Shown one piece after another: positions 5,712-44,164 of a DNA stretch of 45,277 nucleotides. The notes beneath the pieces were generated by a model. The model did no database searches. It was not told the DNA's origin and saw only the letters and a program-made list of their open reading frames with translations. Source of the stretch: Minisyncoccota bacterium (GTDB lineage Bacteria > Patescibacteriota > Minisyncoccia > Minisyncoccales > JAQTVQ01); NCBI GenBank assembly GCA_041657565.1, contig JBBABQ010000002.1, positions 1 to 45,277 of the forward strand, in the 5' to 3' direction. Made by a program: the position numbers and the translations under genes. How positions within the stretch are numbered: position 1 is the stretch's first letter; each line of letters starts with the position of its first letter.

Positions 5712-7118
5712 ATGAAGATCACTTTTTTCGGAGCGGCCAGGAATGTGACCGGCTCGAAGCATTTGATACAGACCCAAGGGTTCAATCTGCTTTTGGATTG
5801 CGGAATGTATCAAGGGAGAAGAGACCAGTCCAACCAGTCGAACAGGACCCTTCCTTTTTCAAGCAAGGATATAAATGCCGTCATCCTTTCGCACGGGCAT
5901 GTGGACCATAGCGGGCTGCTGCCAGTTTTGGTAAAGGAGGGATTTATGGGAAGGATCTATTGCACCGGCCCGACCGCCGAGATCACGAAGTATCTTTTAG
6001 AGGATTCCGCTTCCATCCAGGAGAAGGACTGCGATTATTTTAACAGCCACCTCAGAGAAGGAGAATCTCCGATATCTCCGATCTATACCAGCAACGAAGC
6101 GGAAAGAACTTTCGCTTATTTCGAGCCGGTCTCTTATTTCAACCGGAGCAGCGAATGGACGGAACTGAATAAAAATATCCGTTTCAAATTTTATGATGCG
6201 GGACATATACTCGGATCGGCGATAACTTTTTTGGAAATAAAGGAAGGGGGAGAGACAAAGACGCTGGTTTTTACGGGAGATCTCGGAAGAGAGAACCTTC
6301 CCATTTTGCGTTCGCCGGAAGCCGTGGAGGAAAAAGCCCAAACAATGATCATGGAATGCACTTACGGGGCAAGGGTCCATCGGCCGATCGGAGAGGTGGC
6401 GGAAAGCTTGAAAGAAGCCGTCCATTTTGCCATCCGGAAAAAAAGCAAGATAATCGTTCCGGCCTTCGCGCTCGGCAGGGCTCAGGAGCTTATTTACATA
6501 ATCCATAAGCTTATAGACGAAAAATGCATCCCGAAGATCCCGATCTATTTTGACAGCCCTCTTTCCCAAAATCTTACGGCGATCTTTGCCAGATCGGCCA
6601 AATATTTCGACGAGGAGTTTTGGGAAGATTTCGGAAATCGCAGGGAAAGCCCCTTTTCTTTTGAGAATCTTCATTACGTCAGCTCTCTCGAAGAATCAAA
6701 AGCCATAAACAGGAAGCAGGGCCCTCTTATGATCATTGCCGCTTCCGGGATGGCTGAAGGCGGCAGGATATTGCACCATCTTAAAAATAGCATTGGCGAT
6801 CCGAACAGCATGGTTCTTATTACCGGTTTTCAGGCCGAGAACACCCTCGGCCGAAAGATCCTTGAAGGGGTAAGTCCGGTCAGGATATTCGGCTGGAATT
6901 ACGACGTGAGAGCCAAAGTCGCCGTGCTCAACGAGCTTAGCGCCCATGCCGATCAAAAGGACCTTTTATCGCGCGTTGAAGAGACCAACGGGTTGGAAAG
7001 ATTGTTTCTGGTCCACGCAGAGATATCCCAAGCCATGGCTTTTAAGGATCTGGCAGGGAGTTCTTTCCCCGGGCTTCCGATAGAGATCCCGGAGCTTGGG
7101 CAGACGTTCGAAGTATGA
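5712..7118 (+). CDS. MBL-fold beta-CASP ribonuclease (RNase J/CPSF-like)
   Basis: 'ILSHGHVDHSG' metallo-beta-lactamase motif, a beta-CASP-like middle region and a C-terminal 'ELSAHAD' motif. Confidence 0.85.
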   Translation: MKITFFGAARNVTGSKHLIQTQGFNLLLDCGMYQGRRDQSNQSNRTLPFSSKDINAVILSHGHVDHSGLLPVLVKEGFMGRIYCTGPTAEITKYLLEDSASIQEKDCDYFNSHLREGESPISPIYTSNEAERTFAYFEPVSYFNRSSEWTELNKNIRFKFYDAGHILGSAITFLEIKEGGETKTLVFTGDLGRENLPILRSPEAVEEKAQTMIMECTYGARVHRPIGEVAESLKEAVHFAIRKKSKIIVPAFALGRAQELIYIIHKLIDEKCIPKIPIYFDSPLSQNLTAIFARSAKYFDEEFWEDFGNRRESPFSFENLHYVSSLEESKAINRKQGPLMIIAASGMAEGGRILHHLKNSIGDPNSMVLITGFQAENTLGRKILEGVSPVRIFGWNYDVRAKVAVLNELSAHADQKDLLSRVEETNGLERLFLVHAEISQAMAFKDLAGSSFPGLPIEIPELGQTFEV

Positions 7119-7296: not shown

Positions 7297-9879
7297 ATGC
7301 AGAATAAAATAGCCAGATCTCTTTTCTTGCTGGCATTGGCCGGTTTCGGTTTTGTTTTGTTCAATGCCAAAGATCTTTCTCTGGCCAACTCGACCGCAGT
7401 TTCGGATATAAGCGTTTCCGTTTCCCCTTCTTCCGTCTACGTCGGAGGCATGGTGGAAGTGGCCGTATCGATGATCCCCGGAACCGTTTTTTCGGCGGAT
7501 TCCATATCCGTAAAATTGGCCAGCCCTTCGGCTTCCGATTATGTCCTTTTAAAAGATGTGAAAAAGGATTCTTCGGGAGTTTGGCGCGGGCAAATAACCA
7601 TCCCGTTGGAAGCCGAACTGGGAACGTGGAAAGTATATTTTGTCCAGGCGACGGATGCGGCGGGAGTTGTGAAGAATTATTATTACGACAGCATAAATGT
7701 TAATTTTTCCGTTGTCGGCCCTGATGGCAACGGCGGAGGCACGGTCTCTTCCTGCGATTTTGTTTATTCCGATTGGTCGGAATGCCAGAACGGTCTTCAG
7801 ACGAGAACGGTCCTCTCCACGTCGCCTTCCGGATGCAATGCGGGCACGGCTGTTTTGAGCCAGGCTTGCAGCGTCTGCACTATCACATACTCGAGCTGGA
7901 GCAATTGCGTAAACGGCCAGCAGAGCCGGACCATTGCCAGTAAAGAGCCGGCCGGATGCGTTGTGAGCGGGTTGGCCCCGGTCATGACAAGAGTTTGTAC
8001 GGTCTGTAATAGCTGGCAGTATTCGGATTGGGGCGTCTGCGCAGACGGCAGGCAGTCCAGGAAGATATTATATAGTTTTCCCGCCGGTTGCGTTGGGGGT
8101 AATCCGGAAATTTTAACTAGATCCTGTGAAAGCTCTTCTTGCCTGGATGAATGGACTTGCCATGCGTGGGGGGAGTGCGTGAACGGGGTTCAAAAAAGAG
8201 ATTGCAGTATTTCTTTTGATTGTTTAAGCTCGGAAGATAAAGCGCCCGAAATAGAGCAAGCTTGCATATCCAGTCCGACATCGACCGTGCCTTGCCAATA
8301 TGGATATTCCGAATGGGGCGTTTGCGATAACGGCAAGCAAAGGCGGACCATCGCAAGCAAGACTCCTGATGGATGCGTTGGGACGGTGGATAGCGCTTAT
8401 TTGGAAAGATATTGCACGGCAACTACGTCTTCTTTGCCGGCTTGCGTCTATACTTACGGCGCTTGGAGCGATTGTTCGAACGGGAAGAAAACGAGATCCG
8501 TGGTTTCGACCTATCCGGAGAAGTGTTTGTCCGGGAATGCGATCACTGAGGCGGAATGCGAAGACCTGCCGGACTGCACTTCGGAGGATTGGAAATGCGG
8601 AGAATGGAGCGTTTGTAATTCCGACCGAAGGCAGTACAGGAGGTGTTCATTGGATTCAAATTGCGTTTCCGCTTCTGCCGTAAAACCGGCTCTTGAGCAA
8701 ATTTGCGTTCAGCCGCAAGCTTCTTCAACGGCTGGCGGAGCGCAGGCCAGTGCAATAATCCCGGCGACAGGAACGACGGGAGAAGTTCAAGATGAATCTT
8801 GCGTCCGGGCCGAGCTGAAAGACCAGGGAGATTGCCAATGGTATTTGTATAAATTCAAAATAGCCGAAGAATGTTTGGGAAAAGGATTGGGCGATCAAAA
8901 TAAATGCCGGGAATATTTCTTGGCCAAATATGGAAAGCCTCTGAAGTGCCAGGGAATGAGCGATGAAAAATGCGATTCTTTGATCAACGAAATAATTTTA
9001 TCGGATCTGAAGAATGTTATCGTTCCGGAGATCAGGCAAACTTTAGCCGAGCTTTCCGGCAATACCGCTATGGCCGACGGAGAGAACAGGACGCTGGCCG
9101 TAAATATCGGGGATAAAGAAGGGGGGACGGTTTCCATCAGAGAAGTGAAGTTGGAGGGAATGCCTCTTTCCCGGTCGGGCGGCCGGGTTGCGGTTTCTTT
9201 GCTCCCCACGGTTGCCACCAGCCAGCAAGAAACCCTTTCGCCGGTAGCGATCGGTTTTGATTCTAACGGCAACGGCGTTCCGGATGACGCCGAAGGCCGC
9301 CTGGGTTCTTTGCCGTCGGCGGATCGGGATTCCATCACCAAAGAACAGCTGTCCGCCTTAAGCGGGATCGATCAAGCCTTGATCCGAGGAAAATCTCTGG
9401 AGCAGCCGAAATTCGGCAATGCCAGTTCGAGCGGATATTTAACGGTTTTATCTATAGGGAACGCGGTATCCGCAAGCGGCGGCGATACGGGAACTCTTAA
9501 GTTTCAGGGAAAAGCTTTGCCTGGACAGGTTGTCACTTTGTTCGTTTACAGCCCTATCCCGATAGTCTTGACCGTGAAGGCGGACCAAAACGGTAATTGG
9601 ATCTACGATCTTGATAAAACCTTGATCGACGGCACCCATGAGGTTTATGCCGTGATCAACGACGAAGAAGGGCGGATAGTGGAAGCCAGCTTGCCGGCCC
9701 CGTTCTTTATCCAAGAGGCTAAAGCCGTTACGGTCAATGATTTTGTGAAGACCCAGAGCGCTGCGGCGGTTCCCGACCAATCGGCCAATTTCATAACTTT
9801 TTATTTGCTTGGGGGAGGAGCGTTCATCCTTATAATCGTCGTAGCTTTCCTGCTCTTTAGGAAAAGAGCGACAGAATGA
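7297..9879 (+). CDS. large secreted, C-terminally membrane-anchored surface protein with Cys-rich repeats and Ig-like modules
   Basis: Signal-like N-terminus 'SLFLLALAGFGFVLF', seven ~40-aa Cys repeats, and a C-terminal TM 'FITFYLLGGGAFILIIVVAFLLF' followed by RKR. Confidence 0.85.
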   Translation: MQNKIARSLFLLALAGFGFVLFNAKDLSLANSTAVSDISVSVSPSSVYVGGMVEVAVSMIPGTVFSADSISVKLASPSASDYVLLKDVKKDSSGVWRGQITIPLEAELGTWKVYFVQATDAAGVVKNYYYDSINVNFSVVGPDGNGGGTVSSCDFVYSDWSECQNGLQTRTVLSTSPSGCNAGTAVLSQACSVCTITYSSWSNCVNGQQSRTIASKEPAGCVVSGLAPVMTRVCTVCNSWQYSDWGVCADGRQSRKILYSFPAGCVGGNPEILTRSCESSSCLDEWTCHAWGECVNGVQKRDCSISFDCLSSEDKAPEIEQACISSPTSTVPCQYGYSEWGVCDNGKQRRTIASKTPDGCVGTVDSAYLERYCTATTSSLPACVYTYGAWSDCSNGKKTRSVVSTYPEKCLSGNAITEAECEDLPDCTSEDWKCGEWSVCNSDRRQYRRCSLDSNCVSASAVKPALEQICVQPQASSTAGGAQASAIIPATGTTGEVQDESCVRAELKDQGDCQWYLYKFKIAEECLGKGLGDQNKCREYFLAKYGKPLKCQGMSDEKCDSLINEIILSDLKNVIVPEIRQTLAELSGNTAMADGENRTLAVNIGDKEGGTVSIREVKLEGMPLSRSGGRVAVSLLPTVATSQQETLSPVAIGFDSNGNGVPDDAEGRLGSLPSADRDSITKEQLSALSGIDQALIRGKSLEQPKFGNASSSGYLTVLSIGNAVSASGGDTGTLKFQGKALPGQVVTLFVYSPIPIVLTVKADQNGNWIYDLDKTLIDGTHEVYAVINDEEGRIVEASLPAPFFIQEAKAVTVNDFVKTQSAAAVPDQSANFITFYLLGGGAFILIIVVAFLLFRKRATE
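7753..8706 (+). repeat. seven tandem ~40-aa Cys-rich repeats (coding), thrombospondin type-1-like pattern
   Basis: Pattern C-x4-5-[YW][SG]xW[SG]xCxNGxQxR-x7-10-C-x10-14-C, e.g. 'CDFVYSDWSECQNGLQTRTV...GC...AC' and 'CQYGYSEWGVCDNGKQRRTI...GC...YC'. There are 5 copies of one subtype and 2 of a second ('DEWTCHAWGECVNGVQKRDC', 'EDWKCGEWSVCNSDRRQYRRC'). Confidence 0.85.
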
Positions 9880-11243
9880 TCATGGCTGGAAAAACCCATT
9901 CCAAAATAAAATTTTTACAGGATAACAAACAGGTTGTCTATTCTCTTATTTTGATGATCGTTATTCCGGGCGCGCTGATCTTCAATACGTGGCTTTTGTC
10001 CGGATATTTCAGGAACACGGTAGACCAGAGCATCCACGATAAGGCTATCGCCATAGGCCTGTCGATCAATACGTCTTTGGCCGACAAGCTGGATTCTCCC
10101 GAAGCCGTACAATCATTTATAGATAACTGGCAGAAATACAGCGAAGAAACGAAAATGCTGGATGTAATGTATTTGGAGAAAGACAGCTTTAAGCTGGTGG
10201 CCAGCATCGACAAGGAAAGGGTCGGGGAGATCGATAGCGATCTGCCGATCGATCCGGCGGCTTGCATGATCTCTTGGAAAAACGGCAGGCCGCTCGCGCA
10301 GAAAGTTTTTTCGCAGGGAAGCAACAATCCTTATTGGCTTGTGTTGATGCCGTTGACCGATCTTCAGGGAGAAAAGAAGGCCCTTTTGGCCATGGAATTT
10401 TCGACCGATTTTGTCAGCTTCAATCTGATGGGCGCCCTCGTCAAATCTTATCTTATTTTGATGCTTACGGTAGTTTTGATAATCCTCCTTTTGTACGTTA
10501 ACTCCCATCTTTTCGAGTATTCGATCCTTTACAACAAGATCAAAGAGATAGACGCGATGAAGGACGATTTTATCTCCATCGCTTCGCATGAGCTTAGGAC
10601 CCCGGTCGTCGCTATCAAAGGATTCGCTTCTATGATCATAGAAGAGTCTCAAAGTTTGGCGCTGAACGAAAAAATGAGGGAATATGTGGGGATAATCAGC
10701 GCCTCGGCCGATCGTTTGGCCATGCTGATAGAAGACCTCCTGAATGTCAGCCGCATCGATCAGGGGCGGTTTAAAATGGACCTTAAAGAAATAGATGCTT
10801 GGCCGGTCATAGAAGAAACATTAAAGGAATTTACGCCTCAGGCCAATGAGAAAAAATTGGCTTTATCTTGCGTTTTGGAGCCGGGTTCTAAAACTATCGT
10901 CTTGATAGACAGGGACCGTTTTAAGCAGTCCCTGATAAATGTCATTGGCAACGCCGTCAAGTATACACCTTCCGGCAGCGTTGAGGTTCGGGCCAGAAGC
11001 AAAGGGAAGAGCTTTACCGTTACCGTCAAAGATACGGGGATAGGAATGACGGCGAAAGAAAGGGAGCATTTGTTCGATAAATTTTATCGCATCAAGAAAA
11101 AAGAAACGGAGGATATTATCGGAACCGGCTTGGGCCTTTGGATAACCAGGCAAATGATCGGTCTGATGAAAGGGAGCATATCTGTCGATTCGATAGAGAG
11201 GGTCGGCAGCCAGGTAACCATAGAGCTGCCTTTGGCCGGCTGA
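9876..11243 (+). CDS. sensor histidine kinase (2 TM, extracytoplasmic domain, HisKA + HATPase_c)
   Basis: H-box 'SHELRTP', N-box 'NVIGNAVKYT' and G-boxes 'DTGIGM'/'GTGLGL'. The ATGA overlap with the upstream gene implies coupling. Confidence 0.9.
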   Translation: MIMAGKTHSKIKFLQDNKQVVYSLILMIVIPGALIFNTWLLSGYFRNTVDQSIHDKAIAIGLSINTSLADKLDSPEAVQSFIDNWQKYSEETKMLDVMYLEKDSFKLVASIDKERVGEIDSDLPIDPAACMISWKNGRPLAQKVFSQGSNNPYWLVLMPLTDLQGEKKALLAMEFSTDFVSFNLMGALVKSYLILMLTVVLIILLLYVNSHLFEYSILYNKIKEIDAMKDDFISIASHELRTPVVAIKGFASMIIEESQSLALNEKMREYVGIISASADRLAMLIEDLLNVSRIDQGRFKMDLKEIDAWPVIEETLKEFTPQANEKKLALSCVLEPGSKTIVLIDRDRFKQSLINVIGNAVKYTPSGSVEVRARSKGKSFTVTVKDTGIGMTAKEREHLFDKFYRIKKKETEDIIGTGLGLWITRQMIGLMKGSISVDSIERVGSQVTIELPLAG

Positions 11244-11468
11244 CCTTGACTTTATTGCTATTTTATTTTGAAATGCCGGTTTCGGGCCGAAGAATGGAAA
11301 AGTATTGACAGGAGCTTTTAAAAAGAATATCAGGTTTAATAAGGCAAATTTAAAAACACGGAAATCTCTTGATGTTTGTACGGCTGTTGATCTAGGGTCG
11401 GAGCTGGTTTTAAGCTTTTTAGGCTAAAGGTCGGACGTTTAATAAAAATTAATTCAGAACAATATCAA

Positions 11469-11546
11469 ATGAAATTTGTCTTCAAAAAGGTAAAGTTATC
11501 CGCTCTTTATGAGATCAAAGCGGCTTGTCAAGATTGTCATTTCTAG
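11469..11546 (+). CDS. unannotated 25-aa ORF 'MKFVFKKVKLSALYEIKAACQDCHF', candidate RiPP precursor peptide
   Basis: ATG ORF below the 60-aa track cutoff. The N-half is basic and helical and the C-terminus has a CxxC. A 15-bp-stem terminator follows 6 nt later, and the rSAM/PqqD operon is immediately downstream. There is no clear SD. Confidence 0.4.
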   Translation: MKFVFKKVKLSALYEIKAACQDCHF

Positions 11547-11552
11547 TGGATG

Positions 11553-11595
11553 ATGCAAGACAAGAGTGTTGGTACTCTTGTCTTGCATTTTTTTT
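11553..11595 (+). terminator. very strong rho-independent terminator/attenuator
   Basis: Perfect 15-bp stem ATGCAAGACAAGAGT/ACTCTTGTCTTGCAT with a GTTGGT loop, followed by T8. Confidence 0.9.
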
Positions 11596-11611: not shown

Positions 11612-11983
11612 ATGTATTCCCTCTATCTCTTATCGGAGAACGTCGGTTTGCGCAAAGAAAAAAAAGGCGGAGTGCTTCTCCTGAGGAATAAAGAAGACAA
11701 TTCTTTATTTTTTTATATACCGGACGATTTTGGGATTTTTTTAGAAATGAAGGAAGGGGGCCGCTGTCTTGGCGTCGATCTTTGCAAATTCAAAGACGCG
11801 GGCCGGATCATTCTGTTTTTGTCTTATATGATCAAGAACGGCATATTGGTTCACAAAAAAGATTGCTCCAAAAAAAGCGGTTGCGGCGCCAAATTCGTCG
11901 AGCTCAAGTCTGCCCCCAAGATGATCAGCCTGTTCATAACTCCAACCGTCCATTTCAGAAGATATTACGGATATGGCAACTGA
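11612..11983 (+). CDS. hypothetical protein (123 aa from ATG 11612), first gene of the rSAM operon; coding status uncertain
   Basis: The ORF-track start at 11525 (TTG) runs through the terminator hairpin, so I moved it to the first ATG. It overlaps the rSAM start by 11 nt. It has 5 Cys and the C-terminus 'HFRRYYGYGN'. I recognise no family. Confidence 0.3.
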   Translation: MYSLYLLSENVGLRKEKKGGVLLLRNKEDNSLFFYIPDDFGIFLEMKEGGRCLGVDLCKFKDAGRIILFLSYMIKNGILVHKKDCSKKSGCGAKFVELKSAPKMISLFITPTVHFRRYYGYGN

Positions 11984-12998
11984 TAATTTTAAATTAAAGT
12001 CTCCTCTTAAGGTGACCTTGAACGTTACCAACAGGTGCAATTTCAAGTGCGTCCATTGTTATAACGGCTCTTCATCGGGATGGGAAGGAGAAGAGTTGGG
12101 TTTGGCGGAAATAAAATCCCTCTTGAAAGAGCTTAAAAAGATGGAAGTTTTTTTGATATCCGTGAACGGCGGCGAACCTTTTTTGAGGAAAGATATTTTT
12201 GAGATACTGGAAGAGATAAACCGCCTTGGTTTTGTTTCCAATATAAATACGAATGCCTCATTGGTCACGCCGGAGATCGCCAAGAGGATGTCGGAATTGG
12301 GTTTTAAAAGCGTAGACGTCTCTTTGCACGCCGATAACAGAAAGAATTTTTTACGGTTTACGGGGTCGGAATTATTCGACCAAACAGCCGCCGGGATCAA
12401 AAATCTGATCAAGGCGGGAGTTCCTCCGAGCATCGCTTTTGTAGCTACTTCCGTGAACATCAGCTGGGCGTCGGACGTTGTAAAAACGGCCGCGAACCTG
12501 GGAGTAAGATCCATGCACACAATAGTCCTGGTCGAAAGAGGCAGGGCGGCCGGGAGCGGCCTGACCGTGAAAATGGCGGACTTGAAAAAAGCTTACGACA
12601 AGCTCATCAAGCAAGGGGAAAAATATAAGGTCGATCTCTTTTTGGAATGTCCGTTCAACTTGCACGAAGGGATCGCTTCCTACGGGATGGAGGATATTGA
12701 GATGGATGGAGGCTGTTTCGGCGGAAGGTATTTAGCTTGCGTCCAGGCGAACGGAGACGTTACGCCTTGCGCCCTTTTTCCCGATTACGTGGTCGGGAAC
12801 ATCAAACAAAAAAAGTTTTTCGATATTTGGAATTCTTCGGAGATGTCCGCGTTGGAAGGAGGAAAGTATGAACTGCCGGAAGGATGCGGACGCTGCGAGA
12901 TATTGGCAAAATGCCATGGCGGATGTCCGACATCAAGCTATTCTCCGGAGGGGTTCGTTCCGGACCATTTCTGCGTAAAAAACAAAAATAATAATTAA
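11973..12998 (+). CDS. radical SAM enzyme with C-terminal SPASM domain (peptide-modifying type)
   Basis: 'CNFKCVHC' CxxxCxxC cluster and 'NGGEPFL'. C-terminal block 'GGCFGG...ANGDVTPC...GNI...IW...CGRCEILAKCHGGC'. Confidence 0.9.
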   Translation: MATDNFKLKSPLKVTLNVTNRCNFKCVHCYNGSSSGWEGEELGLAEIKSLLKELKKMEVFLISVNGGEPFLRKDIFEILEEINRLGFVSNINTNASLVTPEIAKRMSELGFKSVDVSLHADNRKNFLRFTGSELFDQTAAGIKNLIKAGVPPSIAFVATSVNISWASDVVKTAANLGVRSMHTIVLVERGRAAGSGLTVKMADLKKAYDKLIKQGEKYKVDLFLECPFNLHEGIASYGMEDIEMDGGCFGGRYLACVQANGDVTPCALFPDYVVGNIKQKKFFDIWNSSEMSALEGGKYELPEGCGRCEILAKCHGGCPTSSYSPEGFVPDHFCVKNKNNN

Positions 12999-13008
12999 TA
13001 TATCTGAT

Positions 13009-13281
13009 ATGGCAAAAATAACATTCAATGAAGATCTTTTTTCCTTGGTCCCCTCGCCGGAAGATCCGGGAGTGGCTTTCGTTTTTAATAAGAAGGACGG
13101 TTCCATCTTCCAGATCGAAGGGGTTACCAAAGAGATAATAACCGGGCTGAAAGGCAAGAAAAAGGAGGAAGAATCTCTTGTCGACGCTTATATAGCTAAA
13201 TATAAAATGGGCGCCAAGGATGTAAAAAGTTTCAGATCTTTTTTGGCTAAAGTTAAAAAAGCCAGAGTTATCATTAACTGA
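13009..13281 (+). CDS. PqqD-like peptide chaperone / RiPP recognition element
   Basis: 90 aa. 'GVAFVFNKKDGSIFQIEGVTKEIITGL...SLVDAYIAKY...DVKSFRSFLAKVKKARVI' follows the PqqD-family pattern. It sits between the two rSAM genes. Confidence 0.7.
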   Translation: MAKITFNEDLFSLVPSPEDPGVAFVFNKKDGSIFQIEGVTKEIITGLKGKKKEEESLVDAYIAKYKMGAKDVKSFRSFLAKVKKARVIIN

Positions 13282-13288
13282 AAAGACC

Positions 13289-14275
13289 ATGCCAGCCTCC
13301 AAGGAAAAAACGAAATTTTATATCCAATGGCATCTTTCCGACAGGTGCAATTTAAGATGCAAGCATTGCTACGTTTCGGAGAGGAAGACGCACCTGCCTT
13401 TACCCAAGTTAAAAGACGGCATCGACAACGTGTTAAGGCCTGTTTCCAATTGGGTTGACGAGATCAGCGTTTGTTTGTCGGGAGGGGAGCCGTTTTTATA
13501 TCCTGACCTGGCAGAGATAGTCCTTCATCTTAAAAAATGGAAAAAGGTCAAAAAAATAATGTTTACCTCCAACGGGACGCTGGCCGATAAAAAACTTTTA
13601 GGCAAGATAGGGAAGCATATCGATAATATCCAAATAAGCCTGGAAGGAGGAAAAGAGGCGAACGATCAAATAAGAGGAGGCGGAGTCTACGACCTCGTAA
13701 AGAAGAATATTCCCGTATATAGATCGTTGGGATGCAAGATCGCTGTTAACATGACGGTTCACAAACTCAACTATAAGGAGATCCCGGCGGTTATAAAGTT
13801 TTGCGAGGACAATAAAGTCGATATTTTCGCAATCTCCCGCCTTGTTCCCATCGGTAGCAACAATGAGGTGGCGAAATTAATGCTTTCCAAGAAACAAACA
13901 GAAGAGATATATTCCGGCCTGGTTTTTTTGTCGAAAAAAAAGAAGCTGAAATTTTCTTTTAACAGAACCTTATGGAACATCATCGACAAAAAGATCGGCC
14001 ATCCTTGTTCTGTCGGATTGAACGCGGTTGCGATATTGGCGGACGGGACGCTTTTGCCTTGCCGCAGGCTGGAAATACCGATAGGGAATTTTTTGAACGG
14101 TGATTTTGTCGACGTTTGGCTAAACTCCCCCGTTTTGAATAAATTGAGAGATCGGGGGAAAATAAAAAAATGCGGCTCTTGCGAACATTTGGAAAAATGC
14201 GGAGGATGCAGGGCCGTAGCTTACGGAAAAACCGGGGATCTTTTATCAGAAGATCCTCAGTGTTTTAAACTATGA
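13289..14275 (+). CDS. radical SAM enzyme with C-terminal SPASM domain (second maturase)
   Basis: 'CNLRCKHC' and 'SGGEPFL'. C-terminal block 'CSVGLN...ADGTLLPC...IGNF...VW...CGSCEHLEKCGGC'. Confidence 0.9.
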   Translation: MPASKEKTKFYIQWHLSDRCNLRCKHCYVSERKTHLPLPKLKDGIDNVLRPVSNWVDEISVCLSGGEPFLYPDLAEIVLHLKKWKKVKKIMFTSNGTLADKKLLGKIGKHIDNIQISLEGGKEANDQIRGGGVYDLVKKNIPVYRSLGCKIAVNMTVHKLNYKEIPAVIKFCEDNKVDIFAISRLVPIGSNNEVAKLMLSKKQTEEIYSGLVFLSKKKKLKFSFNRTLWNIIDKKIGHPCSVGLNAVAILADGTLLPCRRLEIPIGNFLNGDFVDVWLNSPVLNKLRDRGKIKKCGSCEHLEKCGGCRAVAYGKTGDLLSEDPQCFKL

Positions 14276-14784
14276 GCATCTTTCCCAGACATGTTTCTGC
14301 GGGAGACAACGTCATTATCCATGTGAAAATGATGAATCTTTCTTCCGTCTGCTTGCCGGTCAGTTTGGATACTTATATCCAGAATAAAGACAGAGGATCA
14401 AAAAAATGGATAGTACGTGAAGGCTTTTTCCTCCTCCCTCCGGCCGAAGACGGGAAAGAAGGGGTTGTTGAAAGGTATTTTTCCGTTGCTACCGACGGGA
14501 AGATGCCGCTTGGGAGGTACGATTGCTTCACCAGTATCAAATATCTGGACAGGAAAAGCATGTCTTTGACCAAAAAAGACGACCATTTTTTTCTTGAAGA
14601 GATAACCATTTCGGTGGAAGGAAGCTCGATCATATTAAAAAACAGTTCTCCGGTCGCCGCCGGCGTTAAAATATACCGTATTGGGGGGAGTGCCACAAAA
14701 AAAATAAGGGGGCTGGGGAAGATCAAATTTCCGAGGGTAGGGTTTCTTTATGCTGTCTACGCCAACAATAGCATATTGACCTGA
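14272..14784 (+). CDS. hypothetical protein (170 aa), translationally coupled to rSAM-2
   Basis: ATGA overlap with 13289..14275. No signal peptide. The sequence looks beta-rich ('VSAGDNVIIHVKMMNLSSVCLPVSLDTYI' is CARDB-like). No family recognised. Confidence 0.6.
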   Translation: MSIFPRHVSAGDNVIIHVKMMNLSSVCLPVSLDTYIQNKDRGSKKWIVREGFFLLPPAEDGKEGVVERYFSVATDGKMPLGRYDCFTSIKYLDRKSMSLTKKDDHFFLEEITISVEGSSIILKNSSPVAAGVKIYRIGGSATKKIRGLGKIKFPRVGFLYAVYANNSILT

Positions 14785-14812: not shown

Positions 14813-14838
14813 AACCGTTTCCTGCAGGGCGGTTTTTT
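14813..14838 (+). terminator. possible terminator of the rSAM operon
   Basis: Imperfect hairpin AACCG...CCTGCAGG...CGGTT followed by T6. Confidence 0.4.
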
Positions 14839-14894
14839 ATCCATAGAACAGAGCTGTTTGCTTTGAACGGGTTTTTTGAGCTATATTTAAATCA

Positions 14895-16529: not shown

Positions 16530-16540
16530 AAAACAAAAAA

Positions 16541-16571
16541 CCGCTCCGCAAAATTGCGGGGCGGTTTTTTT
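16541..16571. terminator. bidirectional terminator shared by xseB (+) and metK (-)
   Basis: Stem CCGCTCCGCA/TGCGGGGCGG (one G-U pair), flanked by an A-run and a T-run. Confidence 0.8.
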
Positions 16572-16578
16572 GTTGAAT

Positions 16579-17520
16579 CTATCCCCACGGGAATTCCCTT
16601 CCGAAATGGCCCCAAGCCGATGTCCGGCGGAATTTTATTTTTCCCAGGCTGAGGAACTCGTAAATTGCTTTAGGAGACAGATCATAGCCGATTATCTTTT
16701 CTTCTTTGCCGTCTATCTCGGCGACAGCCATTACCGGTTCTTTTTTTCCGATGGCGTAGGCAAGTTTGGTCCTGACGGTTTTCGCGCCACTTTTTTTCAA
16801 CAGATCGACGGCGATGCGGCGGGCCATATAGGCCCCGCTGCGGTCGACCTTGGTCCAGTCCTTGCCGGAAAAAGAGCCTCCTCCAACGCCGATCTCCGGG
16901 CCGTAGTTATCTATCATTATTTTTCTCCCGGAAAGGCCGGAATCCGCGTCAAACCCTCCCATCTCCCATTCGCCGGCCGGGTTGATCAGATATTCTTCGG
17001 ATTTTATCAAAGCGCAGACCGCTTTTTTGAGATCTTCCGTTTTTGTTTTTTGGAAGCTGGCGACGACGGTTTTTATCCGGCCGTCTTCGATCGTCACCTG
17101 CGTTTTCCCGTCGTAGGGAAACTGGCTGTAGAGTTTGTTGCAAAGCTTGCGGGCAAGCTCATATTCGAGGGGCATGAAATTATTGGTCTCGCTGGTGGCG
17201 TAGCCGATCATTATTCCCTGGTCGCCGGCGCCTCCGTTATTAACGCCTTTGGAAATGAAAGGGCTCTGCTGAGAAACGTAGATCTTCACGTTGTATTTTT
17301 GGCCGAGGATCTTTTTGATCGTGTCCTCGATGTTCAGTCTTGCTTCGCTGGTCACCTCGCCGGAAACGGAAATATTGTCATGGCCGCCCATGATCTCTAT
17401 CGCTACCCGGCTTTTCGGGTCGAGTTCCAGAAAAGCGTCCAGCAATATGTCGGCCAGGTAATCGCATAGCTTGTCGGGATGCCTTGGAGAAACGAATTCG
17501 CACGTTTTTGTGTTTGCCAT
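16579..17520 (-). CDS. metK: S-adenosylmethionine synthetase, compact 313-aa form
   Basis: 'GAGDQGIMIGYA', 'GGGSFSGKDWTKVDRSGAYMAR' and N-terminal 'SPRHPDKLCD'. It is preceded by a SAM-I riboswitch. Confidence 0.9.
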   Translation of the reverse strand: MANTKTCEFVSPRHPDKLCDYLADILLDAFLELDPKSRVAIEIMGGHDNISVSGEVTSEARLNIEDTIKKILGQKYNVKIYVSQQSPFISKGVNNGGAGDQGIMIGYATSETNNFMPLEYELARKLCNKLYSQFPYDGKTQVTIEDGRIKTVVASFQKTKTEDLKKAVCALIKSEEYLINPAGEWEMGGFDADSGLSGRKIMIDNYGPEIGVGGGSFSGKDWTKVDRSGAYMARRIAVDLLKKSGAKTVRTKLAYAIGKKEPVMAVAEIDGKEEKIIGYDLSPKAIYEFLSLGKIKFRRTSAWGHFGREFPWG

Positions 17521-17581: not shown

Positions 17582-17600
17582 TTTCAGCTTTTAAGCTAAT

Positions 17601-17700
17601 TTATCTTTCCCCGCGCGGGGGTTGGAGTTGGCACCTTTCGGAGGATTCCGATGGTTGCCAGCGGGTCGCAGAGCCAAATCTCTCGCCGCCTTCAAGATAA
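17601..17700 (-). promoter_or_regulatory. SAM-I (S-box) riboswitch aptamer
   Basis: The minus strand reads UUAUCUUGAAGGCGGCGAGAGAUUUGGCUCUGCGACCCGCUGGCAACC...AAGGUGCCAACUCC...CCCCGCGCGGGG AAAGAUAA. It has the P1 pair UUAUCUU/AAGAUAA and the conserved GGCAACC and GGUGCCAA-UCC blocks. It lies upstream of metK. Confidence 0.85.
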
Positions 17701-18036
17701 CTTATTCAATTTTGTTTTTTTATTATATTATATTTTTTCTTTTTTGGAAAGTTCTTGAATATTCGGGATATAAAACGAAACACCGGGGGTTAACCAGGTG
17801 TTATCGCAAGGGAGGCAGAAGATGAGGGTTTTGAGGGAGGGGATCAATTATGAAAATTGAAATAAAGTAAAAAAAAACGATAAGGCCTCTTAATATGAGA
17901 AACCTAAAAGAACATGCTGATATCCAGCTCGTGCCGTTGGGCAACAGTGTTGCAATAGGCAGGCGCGATATCAGGTAAATTTATTTTAACATCAGAGAAA
18001 TTGGTGTCAAGCCTTTTTGAGAAGGCGCCAGAGCAA

Positions 18037-19617: not shown

Positions 19618-20643
19618 ATGGTATCTCTAAGCCCATACTCGATCCCTCCGCTGGCAATTTCCATTCTGTTCCTGTTTTTGGGATCGGCAATTTATTTTAA
19701 GAACAAAAGATCGGCCGCCAATACTATTTTTGCCTTGCTTTCTCTCGTCACTTTTTGGTGGCAGTTTTCCTGGTTTGTGCTTTTCAATGTCCAAGATCCG
19801 GCCTTGGCTTCGATCCTTGTCAAGGTCGGTTACATGGGAATAATATTTATTCCCGTTTTTTTCTACCATTTTTTTCTTGCGTTCATGGGAAGGGTCAAGG
19901 GGCTAGATAAATACGCGCTGTATTTTATGTACGCAGCCAGCCTTTTTTTCGAGATATCTTTGTTTTCCACGAATTTTTTTATCCAAGGATATTACGAGTA
20001 TTTTTGGGGATTTTACCCCAAGGCCGGTATTCTGCATCCGGTATATCTGTTTTTTCTGACAGCCGTTTCGCTTAGGTCTGTTTTTCTTCTCTACAAGAGC
20101 TACCTCGAAGAGAAAGGCGGAGGTACCATAAAATCCAAGCAGACCAAGAATCTGCTGATCGGTCTTCTCATTTATTTCTCGGCTTCCACGGACTTTTTGG
20201 TGAATTACGGGATCGAATTCTACCCGCTCGGATTTATTTTTGTTTTCATCTGTTTGTCCATCATCGCTTACTCGATCTCCAAATATCATATGTTCGACAT
20301 AAGGGTCATTTTGACCGAAATGCTTGTCGGCATTATGGCGGTCGCTTCTTTTGTTGAGGCGCTTCTTTTTCAGGATCTTTGGACCAGGATCTTCGGCTTT
20401 GGTATTTTTGCCCTGCTGTGCGTTATAGGCTATTTGCTGACCAGGTATACCTATCGGGAAGTGCGCGCCAAGGAAAATTTCGAACAAATGGTCCAAGAGC
20501 GCACTAAAGAACTGGAACAGAGCAAGAAGGTCTCCGAGGACCGCGCCGCCGAGCTGGAGAAATGGTACAAGCTCACCATCGGCCGGGAACTCCGCATGGC
20601 CGAGCTCAAGGATAAAATAAAGGAGATGGAGGATAAGAAGTAA
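19618..20643 (+). CDS. multi-TM receptor-like protein (histidine-kinase N-terminal 7TM-like region) with conserved coiled-coil tail, no output domain; paralog 1 of 7
   Basis: About 9 hydrophobic helices, then the tail 'ERTKELEQSKKVSEDRAAELEKWYKLTIGRELRMAELKDKIKEMEDKK'. Confidence 0.8.
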   Translation: MVSLSPYSIPPLAISILFLFLGSAIYFKNKRSAANTIFALLSLVTFWWQFSWFVLFNVQDPALASILVKVGYMGIIFIPVFFYHFFLAFMGRVKGLDKYALYFMYAASLFFEISLFSTNFFIQGYYEYFWGFYPKAGILHPVYLFFLTAVSLRSVFLLYKSYLEEKGGGTIKSKQTKNLLIGLLIYFSASTDFLVNYGIEFYPLGFIFVFICLSIIAYSISKYHMFDIRVILTEMLVGIMAVASFVEALLFQDLWTRIFGFGIFALLCVIGYLLTRYTYREVRAKENFEQMVQERTKELEQSKKVSEDRAAELEKWYKLTIGRELRMAELKDKIKEMEDKK

Positions 20644-20654
20644 ATTTTAAAAAT

Positions 20655-21689
20655 ATGAATTTTTTCGCGATAATTTGTTTTATATGCGCTTCATTGGCTT
20701 TTTTTGCCGGTTATTCGGTTTGGATGTCCGGGTTCAGAAAAAAACTTAACCAATCTTGGGCGCTTTTTAATTTTTCCATAGCTATTTGGATGATCGGCTT
20801 GGGAGAAACAATGAACGTTGACAACGAACTCTCAGCTTTGGTGGCCCAGAAGATCCTTTATATAGGCACGATAATGATCCCTCTCTCTTTCTCTTATTTC
20901 GCCGCCTTGCTGTCCAAAAAAGAAGAAAACGCGGAGAAGCTTCTTTACATAAATTCTTCAGCAGCCGCCTTTTTCCTGGCAACGCTTTTTTTGGGAAGGT
21001 TTTTTATAGAAAAAATATTAGAAAGGACCGATTTCGGTTATTTTCCCATACAGGCCGGAACGCTTTATTATCCTTTTCTTGCTTGGTTCGCGGTGATGGT
21101 CATCTATGGTTTTGTCCTTTTGAGGGGCGGGTTGAGAAACAAGGCCGCTAGCGCGGTCGAGAAGCAGCAGATCAGCTTTATGATGTGGGGGGCGATGGTG
21201 GGATTTATCGCCGGTTCCGTTAATTTTTTGCTCGACTTCGGGATAGTTATCCCTCCGTTCTATAATCTTTTGGTCCCTTCCTATCTTTTGTTCGTCGGAT
21301 ACGCGATAGCGACCAAGCAATTTTTCGGGATCAAGGTGATCTTTACGGAAATGCTGGTGGTCGGGATGGGAATGATATTGATGGTTTTGCCGTTCTTCAT
21401 GCCGAATTTTATTTTGCAGGTTGTAATGGTGATGGTTTTCGTTGTTTTCTGCCTGTTCGGCTATATGCTGATAAGGTCAATGTTGAAAGAGGTCAGACAG
21501 AAAGATATTCTCGCCGGGATGGTCCAGGAGCGGACCAAAGAGCTCGAAGCGAGCAAAAAGGTTGCCGAAGAAAGGGCGGCCGAACTGGAGAAATGGTATA
21601 ATCTTACCATCGGCCGGGAGCTCCGTATGGCCGAATTGAAAGGCAAGATCAAAGAGATAGAGGATAAAAATAATCAGGCCAATAATTAA
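20655..21689 (+). CDS. same family, paralog 2
   Basis: Tail 'ERTKELEASKKVAEERAAELEKWYNLTIGRELRMAELKGKIKEIEDKN'. An 11-nt gap separates it from paralog 1. Confidence 0.8.
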   Translation: MNFFAIICFICASLAFFAGYSVWMSGFRKKLNQSWALFNFSIAIWMIGLGETMNVDNELSALVAQKILYIGTIMIPLSFSYFAALLSKKEENAEKLLYINSSAAAFFLATLFLGRFFIEKILERTDFGYFPIQAGTLYYPFLAWFAVMVIYGFVLLRGGLRNKAASAVEKQQISFMMWGAMVGFIAGSVNFLLDFGIVIPPFYNLLVPSYLLFVGYAIATKQFFGIKVIFTEMLVVGMGMILMVLPFFMPNFILQVVMVMVFVVFCLFGYMLIRSMLKEVRQKDILAGMVQERTKELEASKKVAEERAAELEKWYNLTIGRELRMAELKGKIKEIEDKNNQANN

Positions 21690-21696
21690 AATATTT

Positions 21697-22713
21697 ATGG
21701 ACCTTTATCCGGCAATTTTTTTCGTATCGGGAATATTAGCCGGTTTTGCCGGATTTTTGATCCTGGCCGCCAATATTAAAAGCCTCTTGAACCGATCTTG
21801 GTTCCTTTTCAATCTGTCCTTAATGGCTTGGCTTTTGGGTTTTGGTCTAGGTTTTACCTCCGATCCCGGGACAGCCGTTCTGGCGGAAAGGATTATGGAC
21901 GGAGGGACGATCTTTATACCCGTCTCCCTTCTTTATTTTGTTCTGATCCTGACTGGCCATTATGAAAAACGGAAATTATTCGTTGCGGCCAACGCTGCCA
22001 TCACGGCGGTTTTTCTGGCTTTGATGCTGTTCACAAACTTTTTTTTCGCGGGGTTGGGGGAGTTCGTGAAAGAAATGAATTATTACGTTTTTGATTATGG
22101 CTGGGCGTATTATCTTTTCTTGGTTTGGTTTGCCGCTCTCGCCGCCTACAATTTTTATTTTTTATTTTCGGAAGCGAAGAAAGAAAAGTCCGATCCGGTA
22201 AGAAAGCAACAGCTCAATTTCGTATTTTGGGGGATATTGATAACTTTCTTTTCCGGCTCTATCAATTTTTTGGTCGATTCCATCACCATACCGCTTTACT
22301 ACAATCTTCTGGTTCCTTTTTATTTGGTATTTGTCGGCTATGCTATTATCAGAAATCAACTTTTTGATATAAAGGTCATTGCCACGGAGATACTGGTCGG
22401 AGCCATGGGCTTTATACTTTTGGTCTTTCCGTTTTTAATGCCAAATAACAGCCTTAGGATATCGGCGGCGATCGTTTTTGCGGTTTTTTGCCTTATAGGC
22501 TACCTGCTTGTCAAAACGACCATGGAGGAGGTTAACGCCAAGGAATCTTTAGAGTTAAAGGTGAAAGAGCGCACAAAAGAGCTGGCCCAGGCCAATAAAG
22601 GATTACTGGAGAGGCAGGCGGAAGTCGAGAAATGGTACAAACTTACCATCGGACGCGAGCTGCGCATGGCCGAGTTGAAGGATAAAATAAAAGAGTTGGG
22701 CGGAACTAAATAG
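21697..22713 (+). CDS. same family, paralog 3
   Basis: Tail 'ERTKELAQANKGLLERQAEVEKWYKLTIGRELRMAELKDKIKELGG'. Confidence 0.8.
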   Translation: MDLYPAIFFVSGILAGFAGFLILAANIKSLLNRSWFLFNLSLMAWLLGFGLGFTSDPGTAVLAERIMDGGTIFIPVSLLYFVLILTGHYEKRKLFVAANAAITAVFLALMLFTNFFFAGLGEFVKEMNYYVFDYGWAYYLFLVWFAALAAYNFYFLFSEAKKEKSDPVRKQQLNFVFWGILITFFSGSINFLVDSITIPLYYNLLVPFYLVFVGYAIIRNQLFDIKVIATEILVGAMGFILLVFPFLMPNNSLRISAAIVFAVFCLIGYLLVKTTMEEVNAKESLELKVKERTKELAQANKGLLERQAEVEKWYKLTIGRELRMAELKDKIKELGGTK

Positions 22714-44024: not shown

Positions 44025-44164
44025 GGAATTAGCTTGTAGCTTGTAGTAGTCTTGCTTCGCAAGAAAGGAATAATATATTTAAAACCACGGCATGCCGTGG
44101 TTTTAAATATATTATTTTTTTCATTTCGCCAAAGGCGAAATCCTACAAGCTACAAGCTAATTCC
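44025..44164. repeat. nested palindromic element / bidirectional terminator between convergent genes
   Basis: A 22-bp perfect outer stem GGAATTAGCTTGTAGCTTGTAG (44025-44046) / CTACAAGCTACAAGCTAATTCC (44143-44164). It encloses a small hairpin (TCTTGC..GCAAGA), a perfect 48-nt palindrome (44069-44116) and TTTCGCC-AAA-GGCGAAA. Confidence 0.85.

Follow-up and report, generated by a model that had tools for sequence, protein, structure and literature searches.

What is the role of a 25-codon open reading frame (ORF) that stands, uncalled by gene finders, at the head of a run of radical S-adenosylmethionine (radical SAM) genes? The question is raised by a stretch of 45,277 nt from a Minisyncoccota bacterium of the Patescibacteria (contig JBBABQ010000002.1 of assembly GCA_041657565.1, positions 1 to 45,277 of the forward strand), which in its full length is called here the window. 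On the plus strand, a candidate precursor-peptide gene at 11469–11546 (ATG start, TAG stop) encodes MKFVFKKVKLSALYEIKAACQDCHF; it is followed by a hairpin with a T-run and by five genes, two of them for radical SAM enzymes with a SPASM domain (rSAM1 and rSAM2). A reading of the letters of the window (the original prediction) had proposed that this peptide is the substrate of the enzymes encoded downstream. The comparisons described below lead us to consider it probable that the ORF is a real, translated gene and that its 25-aa product is the precursor, and the substrate, of a self-contained radical SAM peptide-modification cassette of Patescibacteria.

The short ORF is selected as a protein

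Seven lineages were compared: the window, L066, L068, L071, L072, L075–L078, and L079/L080. The search used rSAM1 as the query against 5.8 billion proteins, and two further lineages were added through searches with the families of the 90-aa and 123-aa proteins of the cassette. In the main search, just six orthologs of rSAM1 occur, at 48–57% identity, after which the scores fall sharply to 31% identity. A first scan with rSAM1, restricted to GTDB representatives, gave distant SPASM enzymes only (≤37% identity) and was not used. Scans of genome and metagenome contigs with the peptide alignment returned the known loci only, so that either the family is rare or such scans are insensitive. The lineages are widely spread. 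L071 (JAZHDC010000118.1) belongs to a metagenome-assembled genome (MAG) of Candidatus Absconditabacteria that uses genetic code 25, and each of its radical SAM genes contains 21 in-frame TGA codons; in the genome of the window, TGA is a stop codon. L075–L078 come from a MAG of Candidatus Parcubacteria.

The ATG ORF of 25 codons described in the original prediction is present in the window and encodes the peptide given above. It is intact in all seven lineages, 43–68 nt upstream of the gene for a ~115-aa protein. The other peptides are MKFVFKKVDLNAFYEIKAACQDCHF (L066), MNFIFKKVDFDAFYEIKAACQDCHF (L068), MQFVFEKVDLNAIYEVKASCADCHE (L071), MTFVFKKVDLNAIYEIKANCTNCHE (L072), MKFIFKRVNLDALYEIKATCSDCHF (L075), and MKFIFKRVNLDVLYEIKATCSDCHF (L079). 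Close to the C terminus, Cys20, Cys23, and His24 form a C-x-x-C-H motif that is invariant in 7/7 peptides, with position 22 either Asp or Asn and the final residue either Phe or Glu. Among the first five peptides, the invariant residues are M1, F3, F5, K7, V8, A12, Y14, E15, K17, A18, C20, C23, and H24. With 25 residues, the peptide is too short to accommodate a signal peptide. No second copy of the peptide was found in any of the loci, and a scan of the peptide and of the small proteins of the cassette against NCBIfam gave zero matches.

The pattern of variation is that of a coding sequence. The variable columns of the alignment fall at codon positions 1, 2, and 3 in 13, 7, and 21 of the 25 codons, respectively, and of the six frames, +0 alone is open throughout the seven lineages. 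Nucleotide identity averages 0.73 within the ORF versus 0.34–0.37 in the 75 nt on each side, where the flanks are unalignable. Pairwise Nei–Gojobori estimates give proportions of nonsynonymous differences (pN) of 0.06–0.24 versus proportions of synonymous differences (pS) of 0.42–1.0, the latter saturated. Codon-periodic variation, pN far below pS, and a single shared open frame together imply purifying selection on the peptide as a protein; the saturation of the synonymous sites also implies that the seven loci are not recent copies of one sequence. The original prediction had suggested looking for the ORF upstream of homologous radical SAM–PqqD–radical SAM operons, expecting a C-terminal CxxC core together with synonymous variation, and had named loss or interruption of the ORF beside a retained operon as the contrary outcome. 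Both expectations are borne out in the seven lineages, and neither loss nor interruption was seen. A 30-aa ORF on the minus strand (11496–11588) was considered as the gene instead and rejected, its frame being broken by stops in four of the seven lineages.

Two features might have spoken against a gene. The ORF is absent from the gene-finder calls on every contig examined. Callers of the Prodigal type have a minimum gene length of ~90 nt, and an ORF of 78 nt falls below it, which would explain the lack of a call. The ORF is also without a Shine–Dalgarno sequence, as the original prediction had pointed out; this is the normal state here, since 16 of the 18 confident genes at 4.8–22.7 kb lack one too, and its absence is therefore uninformative.

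A hairpin follows the stop codon

An intrinsic-terminator-like hairpin with a T-run occupies 11552–11595 on the plus strand and starts 2–6 nt after the stop codon of the peptide ORF. Its core is an inverted repeat of ATGCAAGACAAGAGT (11553–11567) and ACTCTTGTCTTGCAT (11574–11588), 15 nt long, 100% complementary, and closed by a 6-nt loop; the terminator scan stretches it to 17 pairs (11552–11589). The predicted free energy is −25.1 kcal/mol versus −8.8 ± 2.5 for shuffled sequences (z = −6.6), and the 181-nt region around the hairpin folds with z = −5.0. The perfect 15-bp stem announced in the original prediction is thus there, and two statements attached to it need adjustment. The run of eight T residues does exist (11588–11595), but the stem ends on the first of them, which leaves seven beyond it. 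The stem is the longest perfect one in the window, but in free energy it is equaled or exceeded by the hairpins at 864–897, 16535–16570, and 44063–44122. With a G + C-containing stem–loop directly followed by a U-tract on the transcribed strand, the element has the make-up of an intrinsic terminator.

In six of the seven lineages, a hairpin with z = −4.6 to −7.5 and a T-rich tail begins 1–7 nt past the stop codon, and the distance from the hairpin to the next ATG is at most 24 nt. The stem sequences are unrelated among lineages while the 3′ end of the ORF is constant, which means that the structure is conserved and the sequence is not. The recurrence of ORF and hairpin together in independent lineages is more than chance would give. 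No competing helix that could act as an antiterminator appears in the minimum-free-energy or centroid fold, and the peptide has no run of regulatory codons; with stems that differ between lineages next to a constant ORF end, no antiterminator pairing could be conserved. The peptide ORF and its hairpin therefore lack the features of a trpL-type attenuator. On the other hand, a ribosome terminating at the stop codon would sit over the hairpin's 5′ arm, and translation could in this way modulate termination.

The space from the hairpin to the next gene is too short for a sigma-70 promoter, and the downstream genes must therefore be expressed by read-through. A promoter inside the ORF (TTGTCA–18 nt–GATGAT, 11525–11554), examined as a possible origin of downstream transcripts, was rejected, being weak and not conserved in the orthologs. 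A layout of this kind is known from the microcin C operon, in which a terminator between mccA and mccB yields a short, abundant, monocistronic precursor transcript and the maturase is expressed through read-through (PMC6495379). By analogy, the conserved terminator fits an excess of precursor transcript over maturase transcript, with a terminator that would be leaky.

Upstream of the ORF, the original prediction had reported a perfect TTGACA hexamer at 11305–11310 with a weak −10 box, TATCAG. Both are present, as a candidate promoter with a 17-nt spacer (11305–11333, plus strand), but the pair is weak and fails the criteria of a standard sigma-70 scan. In L066, L068, and L072, promoters matching 11–12 of the 12 consensus positions lie 39–68 nt upstream of the peptide ATG. 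The window has AGGTCG at 11428–11433, 41 nt before the ATG, the same distance as just past the −10 box in L066 and L068, and from this placement the true start site in the window may be nearer to the ATG. The motif AGGTC[GT] occurs in five lineages (window 11428–11433, L066 2345, L068 369, L072 4385, and L075 6799), 7–10 nt past the −10 box and 32–67 nt before the peptide ATG, and is possibly an element proximal to the transcription start.

The cassette and its proteins

The cassette reads, on one strand and with tightly packed or overlapping genes: the peptide; a ~115-aa protein; a radical SAM/SPASM enzyme; a 90-aa protein; a second radical SAM/SPASM enzyme; and a ~170-aa protein. The order of the five larger genes is kept in 7/7 lineages, with a methyltransferase added in L072 (class I, 6280–7047, inserted between the 90-aa gene and rSAM2). 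In L072, an additional gene for a 472-aa protein (8537–9955) follows the cassette.

The radical SAM operon had been predicted to follow immediately after the hairpin. In fact, a gene missed in that prediction comes first: it encodes a 123-aa protein (11612–11983, plus strand; family A115), overlaps the start of rSAM1 by 11 nt, and is kept in all orthologous cassettes. The family has eight members among the 5.8 billion proteins, and neither Pfam nor NCBIfam has a match to the protein. Its AlphaFold2 model (predicted local distance difference test, pLDDT, 79.7) has an N-terminal domain of four strands and two helices. With Foldseek, the full model gives weak matches to ThcOx, MccB, and TbiB1, all of which contain a recognition element (RRE) of systems for peptides that are made ribosomally and modified after translation (RiPPs); the best template-modeling (TM) score to the target is 0.49. 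On the model, the N-terminal β/α domain may be RRE-like. The most conserved part is the C-terminal tail LFITPT[VIM]H[FY]R[RK] (within residues 102–123, P..I.LFITPT[VIM]H[FY]R[RK].Y), with P102, L107, F108, I109, P111, T112, H114, R116, and Y119 invariant. The tail, rich in His and Tyr and overlapping the rSAM1 start, is modeled at low confidence. The 123-aa protein could act as another RRE, serve in docking, or be itself a further substrate.

rSAM1 (341 aa, 11973–12998, plus strand) carries CX3CX2C at residues 22–29 and a full SPASM cysteine motif, and matches the Pfam families Radical_SAM (2.3e-25) and SPASM (4.3e-13). rSAM2 (328 aa, 13289–14275, plus strand) resembles it in having CX3CX2C near residue 20, complete SPASM cysteine motifs, and no N-terminal RRE extension. 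Among solved structures, the nearest are peptide maturases: SkfB, PqqE, and CteB for rSAM1, and PqqE, SuiB, SkfB, and CteB for rSAM2. In L071, rSAM2 lacks part of the SPASM motif CX2CX5CX2C.

Between the two enzymes lies the gene for the 90-aa protein (13009–13281, plus strand; family B90). Its AlphaFold2 model, built from six sequences, reaches a pLDDT of 90.7, and the best Foldseek match is TbiB1 bound to its leader peptide (TM scores 0.77/0.79, root-mean-square deviation 2.2 Å over 90 columns); the next matches, McbB, ThcOx, LynD/TruD, MccB, and lasso B1, all bear an RRE. The claim of a PqqD-like protein in the original prediction is thereby upheld at the level of the fold, but not at that of the sequence, where the Pfam PqqD model aligns over 63 of its 67 positions with a subthreshold E-value of 0.064. 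On these grounds, we take the 90-aa protein to be a discrete, predicted PqqD-like RRE.

The last gene (14272–14784, plus strand; family C170) encodes the 170-aa protein, with an invariant N terminus MS[ILV][FY]P[KR] and no Pfam match. An exhaustive phmmer search found 16 relatives, some of which (P0141 and P0144, ~240 aa) bear a C-terminal extension. All three distant relatives with a readable context directly follow radical SAM genes, in unrelated clusters: in L082 (6001–6735), a GC-rich cluster with a Nif11-like protein; in L084 (6001–6714), a cassette with three SPASM enzymes; and in L122 (1853–2443), after a 558-aa SPASM enzyme in a locus cut off upstream. Profile searches with the three small-protein families against the sequences of the PDB returned noise only. 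The cassette is closed by a second terminator-like hairpin with a T-run (14813–14840, plus strand), with eight pairs at 14813–14834 and the tail TTTTATCCAT.

The peptide as probable substrate and the alternatives

Several observations point to the peptide as the precursor. As in radical SAM RiPP systems, the ORF is short, co-oriented, adjacent to the enzymes, and co-inherited with them, it is under selection as a protein, and a PqqD-like RRE is present in the cluster at the level of the fold. Both enzymes also have peptide maturases as their closest solved structures. An RRE-fold protein in the cassette implies a peptide substrate bearing a leader. A parallel is found in L084, the distant cassette that shares a C170-type protein: it begins with a 24-aa ORF, MKENENQVELEEIVSVSCGTCDSN (2144–2218), with a good Shine–Dalgarno sequence, a CxxC core without His (the peptide ends in CGTCDSN), and a hairpin extending to ~2250, in the same layout of precursor and terminator.

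We propose that a single promoter upstream of the peptide would drive the entire unit, that most transcripts would stop at the hairpin and T-run to give a short and abundant precursor mRNA, and that a minority would read through to the five translationally coupled genes downstream. As the leader, the conserved N-terminal and central segments of the peptide (xF[VI]F[KE][KR]V...YE[IV]KA) would be held by the 90-aa RRE protein, perhaps together with the N-terminal domain of the 123-aa protein. The RRE would then present the C-terminal core C-x-[DN]-C-H-[FE] to both SPASM enzymes. By analogy with sacti- and ranthipeptides, the likeliest chemistry would be one radical cross-link per enzyme, forming thioethers from Cys20 and Cys23, with Asp/Asn22 or neighboring residues as plausible acceptors. 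The 170-aa protein would be an accessory partner. The absence of a protease, an exporter, or an immunity gene leaves room for a product that may stay inside the cell, following the logic of pyrroloquinoline quinone (PQQ) or mycofactocin.

Could the peptide belong to the cassette without being its (sole) substrate? It might serve as a helper or scaffold that binds a metal or cluster through Cys and His, the target of one or both radical SAM enzymes being instead either the 170-aa protein or the C-terminal tail of the 123-aa protein (LFITPTVHFRRYYGYGN). Metals and haem are classically liganded by C-x-x-C-H motifs, and the peptide is conserved over its full length; the tail of the 123-aa protein is strikingly conserved and rich in Tyr and His, the 170-aa family has its invariant N terminus and always comes after radical SAM genes, and two radical SAM enzymes stand alongside two small partner proteins. 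(No cytochrome c maturation gene lies in the cassette, and the resemblance to a haem-attachment site is a lead only.) We nevertheless regard this alternative as unlikely. The size, position, and orientation of the peptide, its C-terminal Cys core, and the terminator behind it are the standard signature of a radical SAM/SPASM precursor; the RRE fold and the L084 cassette argue in the same direction, and the tail, modeled with low confidence, may be a mere docking element.

That translation of the ORF alone matters, as the regulatory leader of a ribosome-dependent attenuator that controls read-through and whose product has no role, would agree with the closeness of the hairpin to the stop codon in six lineages, with the 5′ arm that a terminating ribosome would cover, and with the lack of space for a promoter before the next gene; termination under ribosome control beside a very small ORF has a precedent at mccA (PMC6495379). 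Selection on nearly every residue with saturated synonymous sites would be unexpected in that case, the ORF has no regulatory codon run, and antiterminator pairing is neither seen in the fold nor conservable with such diverged stems. We give this explanation a small chance of holding by itself; it is compatible with a substrate role for the peptide and does not exclude it. Still further down in probability, to the point of being scarcely credible, comes a chance ORF or a piece of noncoding RNA, with the hairpin as the terminator of the histidine-kinase gene upstream. The shortness of the ORF, the missing Shine–Dalgarno sequence, and the silence of the gene finders would be accounted for, but nearly all genes here lack a Shine–Dalgarno sequence, the hairpin is 309 nt past the kinase stop codon, in other lineages the ORF is not 3′ of a histidine kinase, and the relative L118 retains the kinase with neither ORF nor hairpin. 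The codon-periodic variation in one open frame common to seven lineages, that is, the selection signature together with the conservation, effectively excludes a chance ORF.

Some points weigh against the peptide as precursor of the cassette. The family is tiny, with about seven lineages, and its statistics draw on a small number of sequences. Conservation is roughly even along the peptide and not confined to its core. The window itself has a weak candidate promoter that fails the sigma-70 scan, and L072 has no convincing hairpin after the peptide (z = 0.6). The weak fold matches do not establish the 123-aa protein as an RRE, and an hhalign comparison of the 90-aa and 123-aa families shows no relation (probability 0.2), so that the two cannot be called paralogs. 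Neither radical SAM enzyme reaches any curated NCBIfam cut-off, and the chemistry is drawn from analogy only. The lack of protease, exporter, and immunity genes in the cassette is atypical for a secreted RiPP.

Comparison with known systems

In architecture, the closest systems are those of PQQ and mycofactocin, with a short precursor, a stand-alone chaperone of the PqqD type, and an unfused SPASM enzyme. PqqA, PqqD, and PqqE offer a precursor of ~23–30 aa with the reactive residues near the C terminus, a discrete peptide chaperone of PqqD fold, and a radical SAM/SPASM enzyme of ~340–380 aa without a fused RRE that is among the nearest solved structures; the product needs no exporter. On the other hand, the peptide has no E-x-x-x-Y (Y14 and E15 are adjacent) and carries a Cys/His core instead, the PqqE model (TIGR02109) scores 98.4 bits with rSAM1 and 79.1 with rSAM2 against a cut-off of 381, there are two radical SAM enzymes and not one, and the cassette is without equivalents of pqqB, pqqC, and pqqF. 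In MftA, MftB, and MftC, likewise, a short precursor whose core is C-terminal is combined with a separate RRE protein (MftB) and a radical SAM/SPASM enzyme. Here, the MftC model (TIGR03962) scores 137 bits with rSAM1 (7.5e-40) and 93 with rSAM2, under the cut-off of 265, and no homologs of MftD, MftE, or MftF occur in the cassette. MftA ends in Gly-Val-Tyr, whereas the present peptides end in C-H-[FE].

With the sacti- and ranthipeptides (SkfA/SkfB, SboA/AlbA of subtilosin, CteA/CteB, PapA/PapB of freyrasin), the cassette shares a short core with Cys residues as likely thioether donors and SPASM/twitch maturases, SkfB and CteB being among the nearest solved structures. PapB makes Cys–Asp links, and the Asp/Asn beside Cys in the core recalls it. 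In those systems, however, the RRE is fused to the N terminus of the maturase, while here it is a separate protein; protease and ABC transporter are missing here, and the peptide has two Cys only. The enzymes do not fall within the PapB, StsB, SkfB, or AlbA families, scoring far under the cut-offs for PapB (66.6 bits for rSAM1 and 103.4 for rSAM2 against 340), StsB (125.6 and 66.7 against 625), and SkfB (67.4 and 59.4 against 300). The NirJ2 model gives 159 bits with rSAM1 (cut-off 500).

The best NCBIfam model for rSAM2 is rSAM_ACGX, of the ACGX-repeat system (TIGR04340), which also pairs a short Cys peptide with a SPASM enzyme. The score is 177 bits (4.6e-52) against a cut-off of 400, and ACGX repeats are missing from the peptide, which has one A-A-C-Q. 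The mccA–terminator–mccB arrangement shares a tiny precursor ORF directly followed by an intrinsic terminator inside the operon (PMC6495379), but its enzymology (the adenylyltransferase MccB) is unrelated.

Genomic context of the unit

In the window, the cassette is flanked by a histidine-kinase gene upstream and by xseA, xseB, and metK downstream; MetK and XseA, which place the organism in the Patescibacteria, are 71–86% identical to proteins of ‘Candidatus Paceibacterota’ MAGs. The neighbors vary among lineages: the kinase and xseA in the window, thrS in L072, L075, and L079, and others in L066 and L068. In the close Paceibacterota relative L118, a gap of just 174 nt (6826–7001) separates the gene for the same histidine kinase (68% identity) from xseA (71%), with none of the unit in between, and homology resumes ~20 nt before the xseA ATG. 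Given the varying flanks and the cassette-free L118, the peptide gene, the five genes after it, and the two hairpins behave together as an inserted module, which runs from ~11244 to ~14870. Strain-level contigs (L060–L063) show many single-nucleotide polymorphisms (SNPs) in the kinase and xseA flanks and one SNP in the 3.6-kb module, a near absence of variation that suggests recent acquisition or a sweep.

Other features of the window

A SAM riboswitch (RF00162, 64 bits) lies at 17598–17703 on the minus strand, upstream of metK (16579–17520, minus strand). The segment 44063–44122 is a 60-nt near-perfect palindrome with 30-nt arms, 93% complementary and without a loop, at about −30 kcal/mol. 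Three tandem paralogous genes (19618–22713) encode polytopic membrane proteins of ~340 aa that share a nearly identical charged C-terminal segment, ...ERTKEL...KWY.LTIGRELRMAELK.KIKE.... In an 860-aa protein (7297–9879), about eight Cys-rich repeats of the form C.Y.YS.WS.C.NG.Q.R......P.GC precede a Big_13 Ig-like domain and a membrane anchor at the C terminus; the protein is 42% conserved in L118, beside the same histidine kinase.

A candidate pathway in Patescibacteria

The combination of a radical SAM/SPASM enzyme, an RRE, a short precursor, and an internal terminator is already well known. What is new is this family, the two pairs of a candidate RRE-type protein and a radical SAM enzyme, the accessory protein, and the restriction to the candidate phyla radiation (CPR). 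Searches of the literature on RiPPs and radical SAM/SPASM enzymes of CPR, Patescibacteria, Parcubacteria, and Absconditabacteria, on CxxCH together with PqqD, and with the peptide strings found no description of the system, and the curated protein families and Pfam models cover neither the peptide nor the small proteins nor the cassette. We put forward, tentatively and with doubt prevailing over confidence, a wider proposal: that this is an undescribed maturation system, largely confined to Patescibacteria, with a 25-aa C-x-x-C-H precursor, two SPASM enzymes each with its own stand-alone partner, and a new accessory family (MS[IL][FY]P[KR]), the product of which would be an intracellular redox or metal/haem cofactor and not a secreted antibiotic.

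To our knowledge, Patescibacteria have genomes of ~1 Mb and almost no known specialized metabolism, and they cannot be cultured alone. A five-gene radical SAM cassette that brings its own candidate precursor is, for such organisms, a concrete and testable pathway, retained across lineages as distant as Paceibacterota and the code-25 Absconditabacteria. Since the peptide gene is invisible to gene callers, the cassette appears in all database records examined as orphan ‘radical SAM proteins’. With a named candidate for the substrate, heterologous reconstitution becomes possible from six small genes. Three unannotated protein families are defined (~115 aa, the ~90-aa RRE, and ~170 aa), the last of which recurs beside radical SAM enzymes in unrelated bacteria. 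Should the product be an intracellular cofactor and not a toxin, the cassette would be a third example in the class of PQQ and mycofactocin.

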